Assembly: GCF_003704095.1 (NCBI RefSeq)
Contig: NW_020846280.1
Location: 434,001 to 498,000, forward strand
Length of the DNA stretch: 64,000 bases
From: Pocillopora damicornis
Taxonomy: Eukaryota
Direction: 5' to 3'
The notes under the pieces were generated by a model. It did no database searches. It was not told where the DNA came from and saw only the letters and a program-made list of their open reading frames with translations. Each line of letters begins with the position of its first letter. The first letter of the stretch is position 1. A program made the position numbers and the translations under genes. Positions 61,222 through 63,263 of the stretch are shown piece after piece.

Positions 61222-63263
61222 TCAGCGGCTGCAAGATACGTAAACGCATACCCAACGCCTAACCGGGCAATAATAGTAACCATTAGATGTTCGTTTTATT
61301 ACGTAACGTTGGATATACCAATAGCAGTAGATGCAGAGGTCTCTCTTAACCCTGTCTTTACCACCTGGAAAATGAGAGTGATAACTTTTTACGACTTATA
61401 ATTAACTCTTTGGGAATTAACTCCTCAGCGGTCCCACTTACAAGCGATTAAAAAGAACTCTACACAAAAGCACACAAATACCTTGGATGTTTTCTTTTTC
61501 CACACTCATAGTGACCTTCCTCCTCTTGATGCGATAAATGGGAAATTTGGCACACATTGCAGCCATTTCATCACTCAGAGTGGAACGATCATTCACAGTA
61601 CCAACAACCTCATAATCGTCTTCAGTAGTGTTAACAGATTGTGAGGAACCTGAAGCACTTCGCTGAAAAAGCGATTCAGAAAAGAAATGAGTTGCTTGCC
61701 ATCAAATTTATATTTCAATTTTACTCATTCCATAATCATGATCTTGCTTAAGATTTTAGGTGATAATGGAGTTAAGATCATGTTCGAAGCCCTCAGTTGT
61801 TTTGATGACCGATTCATTTTCCACGAGCACTACAAGAAGTCAAAAACCGGGATATGACAATATGAAAAGACGTCATTTTTATATTAGAGCTTATTGATTA
61901 GCCTAAGCCGGAAGAAGGTCGATAGTCCTTTCGACCATATATGTGTCAGTTATGACATTTAATTTGAGAAAAGCCAAGGAAATTGCCTTCTGAACCCCTA
62001 CCATCAATAAAACTGACACTTTACTGTAAACGATAATTTCAAGGAAACAGAAATGCATCAAAAGACGATGGCTTCATCGTGAACTTCAATGTAAAGTTAG
62101 CGAATCGATCGTTACTCGCGAACAAAGAAAGGAAAGTTACCTTGTCAAGTGCATTTTTGAGGTCTTGAGGCTTTGGAGCGTTTTCAGTGGATTCACTCAA
62201 GAAACAAGCTTTGTGTTCAGGCATTCGGCGCATAACCAAGTTCTGTACGAAAAACATCAGCAAGTAAAGAGTAAACAGTAGCTATGAATTTTAAATAGTA
62301 AAATATCCATTTAAAAATCTTAACTTTCAAACCGCTCTTGGTTATCTCTTTCTAATTGTAGAGCGCCGTACTGCCGTGTGGGAGGTCAAGGTCAAGGTCA
62401 GCGTCTTAAAAATAACCGAGGAGAATGGAGAGGAGTGCTGCCTTTACTATGCTTATTTACTTTGCTATGCTAATTTATTTACTCTTTTAAAGTCATAGAC
62501 TTCGTCCACTTCTCCTGCGCTAGAAGATTTCGTTTTTGGAATGTGATAAGTTTCCGTCTGTTTCTCGGTGTCGATTTTGATTTCTTGTTCATACTCTTCG
62601 TCACCATCTTTGGCTTTAACTTTGTACTTGGACAAAGTTTCCTGTGGAACAAAAGATTACATAATATTTACGTTTATGTTGCTATTGTTCTGGTCTCACT
62701 CACATGGACTTAAACAGCGAACCTGACGTTTCTACAAATTAATTAAAGGAAATGGTCTGAACGCGTTTAACGGCTCAGTATCGGCACAAATTTCAGCTTT
62801 GGACTGCATAGAAAAATTCTTTCAGGATTGTGCGGGAACAACTAAGTCTCCGGAAACCTTTATCACAGTTAAAGACTGATGGCTAAAAATAAACTGACGA
62901 TGAAAGACTGCTAAGCTGCAGATTGATATATGATAGCGAGTATTTTCACTTTTACCTTATCTTCATCTTGGCATTTACAAGCGGGCGCTGCAGATGTGGC
63001 AGCCACGAACAAGGCAAAGAAAAGGAGGTACACCTTCCACTCCTGATGATAAAAGAAAAAAGCATTCGTTAGAAATCCATCATTTTCACGCTGTATAAGT
63101 AAGTCTTTAAAGGAGAGCCCCATCCCTTCTCACAAGTCCAGCTGCATCGTCTAAGCTTCTTTTTCACAGTTTGAGCTACTATCAAAACGGCTGGATATCA
63201 AGCATGCGTATGCATGAAAAAAGTGAAGCTAACTTCAAGTCAATTCGTGTATTTAAGTACCAT
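61222..63263 (-). CDS. Secreted BRICHOS-domain precursor 2 with furin-released cationic beta-hairpin peptide
   Basis: Exons: ATG 63263-63261 (tentative), 63042-62956, 62641-62483, 62242-62141, 61662-61482, 61364-61222, all in frame. Signal peptide (WKVYLLFFALFVAATSA), TETYHIP...VYDFKRNLVM...KACFL and MAAMCAKFPIY, then RVKR/DLCIYCYWYIQRYVIKRTSNGYYYCPVRRWVCVYVSCSR*. TATA-like element at ~63395 and AATAAA at ~60995 on the minus strand. Confidence 0.85.

Follow-up and report, generated by a model that had tools for sequence, protein, structure and literature searches.

A coral BRICHOS precursor with a cationic, hypervariable C-terminal peptide, a likely member of an expanded defence family in Pocillopora damicornis

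Introduction

Few antimicrobial peptides (AMPs) of corals have been characterised, and it is still an open question how corals manage their microbiome and keep pathogens in check. A 64,000-nucleotide stretch of the Pocillopora damicornis genome (contig NW_020846280.1, positions 434,001 to 498,000; here the window) carries on its minus strand a gene for a BRICHOS protein that ends in a cationic peptide behind an RVKR motif. Is this the precursor of an AMP? RxKR is a furin site, and the order signal peptide, BRICHOS domain, cleavage site and disulfide hairpin is the precursor layout of polychaete AMPs. An earlier interpretation made from the letters alone (the sequence-only reading) took the product to be a cnidarian AMP or toxin of this kind and knew of none described from corals. 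We find a transcribed six-exon gene with tandem paralogs, whose tails are hypervariable under a conserved pro-region, and conclude that the gene probably belongs to an expanded coral family of BRICHOS-peptide defence genes.

Corals had already entered this literature. A sea fan transcript homologous to arenicin-2 was reported in 2013 as up-regulated on parasite exposure (PMC3722494), and in February 2026 two close copies of the window protein, CAH3125467.1 (P0004) and XP_058945786.1 (P0026), were detected by proteomics in settling larvae of Pocillopora acuta (PMC12960093). The legend of Suppl. Fig. 5 of that paper calls their tails putative PaBRI-AMP1/2, predicts that furin frees them as two-disulfide hairpins and gives an AMP-predictor score >0.999; in the supplementary table, close copies show enrichment of up to log2 6.8 at the settling stage. 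The coral branch is therefore already predicted in print, and the window peptide alone adds one variant. Coral BRICHOS transcripts of unspecified subfamily have been read as chaperones, rising up to 380-fold in Stylophora under heat and low pH (PMC5299404) and ~5-6-fold in Montipora under heat (PMC8590396). The available text of PMC12019164, PMC13514124, PMC6265681 and PMC10745061 adds nothing on coral peptides. No account of variation in the BRICHOS-peptide family was found in the open literature (a scope without subscription journals and bioRxiv supplements), and neither the gene identifiers nor the name PaBRI-AMP turned up in the main texts searched (0 papers).

Gene structure and transcription

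The coding sequence (675 nt, 224 aa, no internal stops) is divided among six exons by five GT-AG introns with phases 0,0,0,0,1. The coding part of exon 1 is the start ATG alone (63277..63279), next to a GT donor, with the 5' untranslated region (UTR) extending to ~63412. Exon 2 (62956..63042) encodes a signal-peptide-like hydrophobic segment and an N-terminal CxC motif whose cysteines, C23 and C25, are nearly invariant. An acidic beta-strand linker and the start of the BRICHOS domain, with the invariant Asp80-Phe81 of the alignments and structure model, are encoded by exon 3 (62483..62641). The core of the domain with the invariant Cys96 lies in exon 4 (62141..62242; PF04089 positions 15-48), and its C-terminal half with Cys154 in exon 5 (61482..61662; PF04089 positions 63-91), which continues into a basic spacer and ends in phase 1. 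The coding part of exon 6, the cargo exon (61222..61364), follows an AG acceptor. From its phase-1 junction it encodes GKDRVKR, the entire 39-aa peptide (predicted mature form, 61225..61341) and the stop, as the sequence-only reading had it (with the junctional glycine, GGKDRVKR). The predicted furin-type site RVKR lies at 61342..61353, and its R182 and R185 are invariant in 24 aligned relatives. A candidate AATAAA polyadenylation signal is located at 60994..60999, and RNA cover thins below ~60986.

The product is identical, letter for letter, to XP_027050497.1 of P. damicornis (P0018). Exon 6 is thus already in the public annotation; its absence from the open reading frame track, remarked on earlier, is due solely to its small size.

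All five intron joints are covered by RNA contigs, drawn from four runs of four different studies. The joint between exons 5 and 6 (61362-61480), which ties the peptide to the BRICHOS exons, occurs in 4/4 runs, the exon 4-5 joint in 2/4, the exon 3-4 and exon 2-3 joints in 3/4 each, and the exon 1-2 joint (63041-63276) in 3/4, with contigs also running across 63276-63412. The six-exon model is thereby supported. Because paralogs are near-identical in exons 1-5, not all of these contigs come from the window copy. An exon 6 matching the window with 0-1 differences, together with its exon 5-6 joint, was identified in two of the four runs (X10 and X5), in low-depth contigs; their depth is far below that of the PaBRI-AMP2 type, although contigs cannot rank expression.

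The BRICHOS precursor

The N-terminus is a hydrophobic stretch, judged by eye to resemble a signal peptide and modelled as a helix at residues 3-16. Taken singly, exons 4 and 5 match opposite halves of PF04089 weakly (E 0.047 and 0.013). P0004, which is 93% identical to the window protein, scores 50.6 bits (cut-off 25), and all six full-length relatives scanned exceed the cut-off (44-51 bits), so the BRICHOS domain proposed upstream of the peptide is present. D80, C96 and C154 are invariant in alignments of 24 and of 38 sequences, and all five BRICHOS hallmarks given in PMC9714404 appear to be represented in the precursor, the disulfide hairpin as a prediction.

An AlphaFold2 model built from the 24-sequence alignment (mean predicted local distance difference test, pLDDT, 70; predicted template modelling score, pTM, 0.53) comprises the strands and helices of the BRICHOS fold, a spacer modelled as disordered (167-186) and two long tail strands (187-203 and 206-221) that turn at the SN of the tail. 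In this model D80 ends strand 75-80, C96 is on strand 95-99 and C154 follows helix 148-153. The top Foldseek matches are the BRICHOS domains of Bri2 and proSP-C (prob 0.98-0.99), with E values of 5e-3 and weaker and none at E<=0.001. Sequence search of the PDB with the precursor returned nothing useful; a family profile search recovered Bri2 at E 0.002. In the ESM Atlas the protein groups with cnidarian BRICHOS clusters (0.95 and 0.93). Prediction of a complex between the BRICHOS part (30-168) and the tail, run with no alignment, gave no answer (score 0.02, mark 0.34).

The first codon of exon 5 (61660-61662) encodes Arg in the window and Gln in most close copies. This Arg creates a Lys-Arg pair inside the BRICHOS loop, which may offer an additional site for cleavage or may simply be a private variant.

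The tail peptide

The predicted peptide has 39 aa and a mass of ~4.94 kDa. Six K/R and one D give it a net charge of +5, and it contains 8 Tyr and 2 Trp, counts that agree with those claimed earlier. It has five Cys (positions 3, 6, 25, 32 and 37; CxxC...CxxxxC spacing), an odd number that the sequence-only reading had overlooked and that leaves one unpaired in a monomer.

Paralogs and the wider family

We identified a second BRICHOS gene in the window (52280..54399, minus strand), with an open five-exon model (222 aa, phases 0,0,0,1) and a neutral, Ser/Thr-rich tail with 8 Cys. It is identical to P0131 at 215/218 positions and to P0018 at 47/224. Its tail is not AMP-like, and the gene serves as an internal control. 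Desmophyllum and Montipora tails that resemble it group with this gene in the tree (100/99); thus, a different function is probable. Just past the right end of the window (L011:3654-5684, minus strand) lies an upstream paralog with six exons and phases 0,0,0,0,1, identical to P0225. Its Trp-rich tail (33 aa, net +6, 6 Cys, 12 aromatic residues) is, from its sequence, another AMP candidate.

In other Pocillopora records, several closer copies have accession or locus numbers that adjoin one another. The genome assembly G000 has at least one match to exon 6 with its 3' UTR, so some copies may have been collapsed, or copy number may differ. Further cargo exons were sought in the window and five other stretches (L011-L015), and only that of the upstream paralog and a weak match in L014 were found. 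More distant BRICHOS genes occur elsewhere in the assembly, at least one in L014 (contig C730) and two in L015 (contig C3958).

A pro-region tree was computed from 52 of 55 rows (P0128, P0188 and P0213 were left out). It has no known annelid row, because the named matches included no polychaete precursor; a broad-profile search for such precursors returned only cnidarian or unnamed matches (43/6639 candidates). Tail labels on the tree are rough, since for several rows the tail could not be cut automatically. The window gene falls in a group of pocilloporid sequences (98/96) whose branches are very short, and this group lies within a scleractinian clade (97/98, 25 rows) that includes members from Oculina. 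Sea anemone BRICHOS proteins with cationic hairpin-like tails sit elsewhere in the tree. The tails of all 29 full-length relatives chosen from 73 proteins carry a net charge of +2 to +9.

Oculina patagonica has many near-identical tandem copies of BRICHOS-peptide genes, and its P0052, P0012 and P0074 have 24-25-aa tails with ladder-like Cys spacing. The P0012 tail has alvinellacin as its sole PDB match (E 1.3). The P0052 tail has 8 PDB matches at E<=10 (E 0.23-6.8), and 7 of these are 20-22-aa polychaete BRICHOS AMPs or analogues of such AMPs. It aligns with arenicin-3 at 13/19 identical residues, as read from the alignment (E 0.48, weak), and further matches are AA139, alvinellacin, Ap9, N2, NZ17074 and one 20-aa BRICHOS peptide; several of these are arenicin-3 analogues. 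Short Cys-rich peptides match one another easily, and we treat the Oculina likeness to arenicin-3 as a hint of shared ancestry or of convergence that proves neither.

Tail variation and exon exchange

Pocillopora copies are 91-97% identical to the window protein in the pro-region and 28-74% in the tail. Differences number 6/167 (pro-region) and 10/39 (tail) for P0004 (Fisher p 7e-5), 13/167 and 20/39 for P0021 (p 3e-9), and 12/167 and 21/37 for P0026 (p 7e-11). R182, R185, the terminal Cys, the open frame and the positive charge are kept across the tails of aligned relatives. Of the 14 base differences that separate the window exon 6 from an expressed contig of the PaBRI-AMP1 type, 12 were listed, and each of these alters a residue. 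Run X19 contains three versions of the exon 6 region: one identical to the window, one PaBRI-AMP1-like, and one in which the tail middle is replaced by 85 other letters between matching flanks. As X19 carries all three together, they are probably separate copies.

Cargo exons appear to have moved as well. Exons 1-5 of P0024 are window-type (165/177, vs 97/170 to the upstream paralog) and its last exon is of the upstream-paralog type (alignment score 123 vs 34.5), although P0024 is a gene model that could be mis-joined. RNA contigs from two runs (X7 and X5) carry a window-type exon 5 that runs into sequence with a 14-base motif. The upstream paralog has this motif where its last exon begins, and the window lacks it altogether. 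Thus, the tail exon appears to have been exchanged, or the pro-region converted, between tandem copies. We found no earlier description of this hypervariable, apparently exon-swapped repertoire, or of the arenicin-3-like Oculina members.

Proposed function and alternatives

We consider it fairly probable that the precursor is secreted with its BRICHOS domain solubilising a beta-prone tail, that a furin-type cut after RVKR frees a cationic hairpin that attacks microbial membranes, and that gene copies and exon exchange widen the repertoire. By analogy with BRICHOS biology, the domain would hold the aggregation-prone hairpin during secretion, the acidic linker would mask the charge of the tail, and a furin-type convertase would release it at RVKR. 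Nested disulfides, likely C3-C37 and C6-C32, would close the hairpin, leaving C25 free or linking two chains. As in its polychaete relatives, the released peptide would bind and permeabilise microbial membranes, and is likely a host-defence agent against microbes at the coral surface. The family likely diversifies by point change and by exchange of a single phase-1 cargo exon between tandem copies.

Circumstantial support for the AMP half of the sequence-only reading comes from the cationic hairpin, the hypervariable tails, the expanded family and the arenicin-3-like Oculina relative; nothing favours its term "toxin" in particular. Several results weigh against an AMP. The signal-BRICHOS-furin site-hairpin layout is general to BRICHOS proteins, non-AMP members included, and so does not discriminate AMPs; both layout and intron phases recur in the non-cationic paralog of the window. 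The disulfide hairpin claimed earlier appears as two strands in the precursor model, at moderate confidence (tail pLDDT blocks 53-80, pTM 0.53), but the 39-mer folded alone gives a weak, different model without a hairpin (pLDDT 62). Neither the window peptide nor the tail of the upstream paralog has a PDB sequence match at E<=10. The Oculina matches to polychaete AMPs are not significant (E 0.48-6.8), the top match of P0052 is an unrelated scorpion peptide (E 0.23), and in a library of chains of 20 aa and longer tachyplesin- or protegrin-sized rivals could not show up. The closest published copy is only net +2, and neutral or acidic tails occur in clade members P0077, P0080 and P0082 and, by eye, in L018. 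The non-synonymous excess on the cargo exon is not significant alone (p 0.06-0.43, depending on the other 2 of the 14 differences). An activity test of any coral member was not found in the literature covered.

The tail might instead be a structural, amyloid-like or adhesive peptide of settlement cement, mucus or skeletal matrix, kept by BRICHOS from premature aggregation. Its 8 Tyr in 39 residues, the low or negative charge of some tails, the general aggregation-proneness of BRICHOS tails (PMC9714404) and the enrichment of close copies at settlement, the onset of attachment and calcification (PMC12960093), are all compatible with such a role. Most tails are cationic, however, those of Oculina resemble arenicin-3, and tails that are 28-74% identical behind a 91-97% identical pro-region are more in keeping with an arms race than with a building material; we therefore regard this role as unlikely. 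We find it more improbable still that the BRICHOS domain is the working product, a secreted stress chaperone, with the tail a loosely constrained by-product. The pro-region is the conserved part, and coral BRICHOS genes are stress-induced in Stylophora and Montipora, although the subfamily of those genes is unspecified (PMC5299404, PMC8590396). But the precursor of alvinellacin, a proven AMP gene, is likewise induced by heat, 350-fold (PMC5431198). A by-product would also fit poorly with tails that retain their frame, cleavage arginines, terminal Cys and charge, and with listed base changes that are all non-synonymous.

In venom gene families, as here, the pro-region is conserved and the Cys-rich mature peptide hypervariable. 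Cnidarians are venomous, and sea anemone homologues have similar cationic tails; the tail might then serve in venom, allelopathy or signalling, with animal or algal cells instead of bacteria as its target. We give this option little credence: Pfam scans of the window exons and relatives gave no toxin family match, evidence of cnidocyte expression was not found, and the known cationic BRICHOS hairpins are antimicrobial (PMC9714404, PMC10745061).

Defence against microbes is thus the function we favour for the window peptide. A wider claim, that stony corals hold a large arsenal of putative BRICHOS-chaperoned hairpin AMPs, diversified by one-exon cassette swapping and sharing with arenicin and alvinellacin an ancestry that predates the cnidarian-bilaterian split, is tentative and on balance doubtful. 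With its single conserved pro-domain, the family is a source of dozens of candidate peptides that are short and can be made. Larval settlement is a stage at which close copies appear, and heat stress induces coral BRICHOS genes of unspecified subfamily. If the peptides prove active, part of the stress-induced coral BRICHOS response that is at present ascribed to chaperones would be an immune one, and the range of arenicin-like leads would widen from worms to include corals.

Other features of the window

Four long single-exon frames of 868-1386 aa are located at 6202-10116 (plus strand), 22858-26730 (minus), 27239-29845 (plus) and 32790-36950 (plus). The two that were translated have secreted-type beta-repeat ectodomains, a Cys-rich stalk and several membrane helices, and two of the four have weak Chlam_PMP repeat matches. 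The four form a tandem cluster of large intronless putative membrane proteins. A frame with a reverse transcriptase domain (17388-19007, plus strand; RVT_1, E 2e-17), which spans an N gap, is probably a retrotransposon remnant. A Pre-SET and SET domain frame at 47678-48430 (minus strand) represents a histone methyltransferase exon.

Comparison with known BRICHOS systems

The C-terminal disulfide hairpin is listed as a general BRICHOS feature, non-AMP members included (PMC9714404). Secreted non-AMP members such as gastrokines, OAF and BRI2 share with the window precursor the same five hallmarks, this hairpin (predicted in the window protein) among them, and InterPro places a close copy in the gastrokine PANTHER family. 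Unlike those of the window family, the tails of these proteins are not expanded, hypervariable and rich in Arg, Tyr and Trp; the OAF tail, for one, shows 48% conservation from human to fly (PMC9714404).

The PaBRI-AMP1 precursor is identical to the window protein at 161/167 pro-region and 29/39 tail positions, and that of PaBRI-AMP2 at 155/167 and 16/37, with the same furin and hairpin prediction for both. In the window the tail is a version of its own with a higher charge (+5 vs +2). The PaBRI-AMP legend gives two disulfides, with no mention there of a fifth Cys, hypervariability or exon exchange (PMC12960093).

The likeness of anatomy to polychaete precursors that the sequence-only reading proposed is borne out by the signal-like start, BRICHOS domain, RVKR and 39-aa tail. 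Precursors of arenicin-1/2/3, alvinellacin and capitellacin have a signal, an acidic BRICHOS pro-region, a basic site and a cationic disulfide hairpin, and the window precursor ends, as do those of BRICHOS-related beta-hairpin AMPs, in a basic site and a cationic peptide. The alvinellacin gene also has 6 exons with phases 0,0,0,0,1 (PMC4002450), as in the window gene. Intron phase as a mark of AMP identity was rejected: the neutral-tail paralog at 52280-54399 shares the pattern (0,0,0,1), so the phases mark the secreted BRICHOS class. At 39 aa the window peptide is about twice as long as the polychaete BRICHOS AMPs (20-22 aa), and differs from them in its odd Cys, its CxxC...CxxxxC spacing and the lack of a sequence match of its own. 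A tandem multigene family is a trait of both. In Alvinella the peptide is reported as monomorphic and the BRICHOS region as diversifying, with exon shuffling absent (PMC5431198); the Pocillopora copies, with variable tails behind a stable pro-region, present the reverse pattern.
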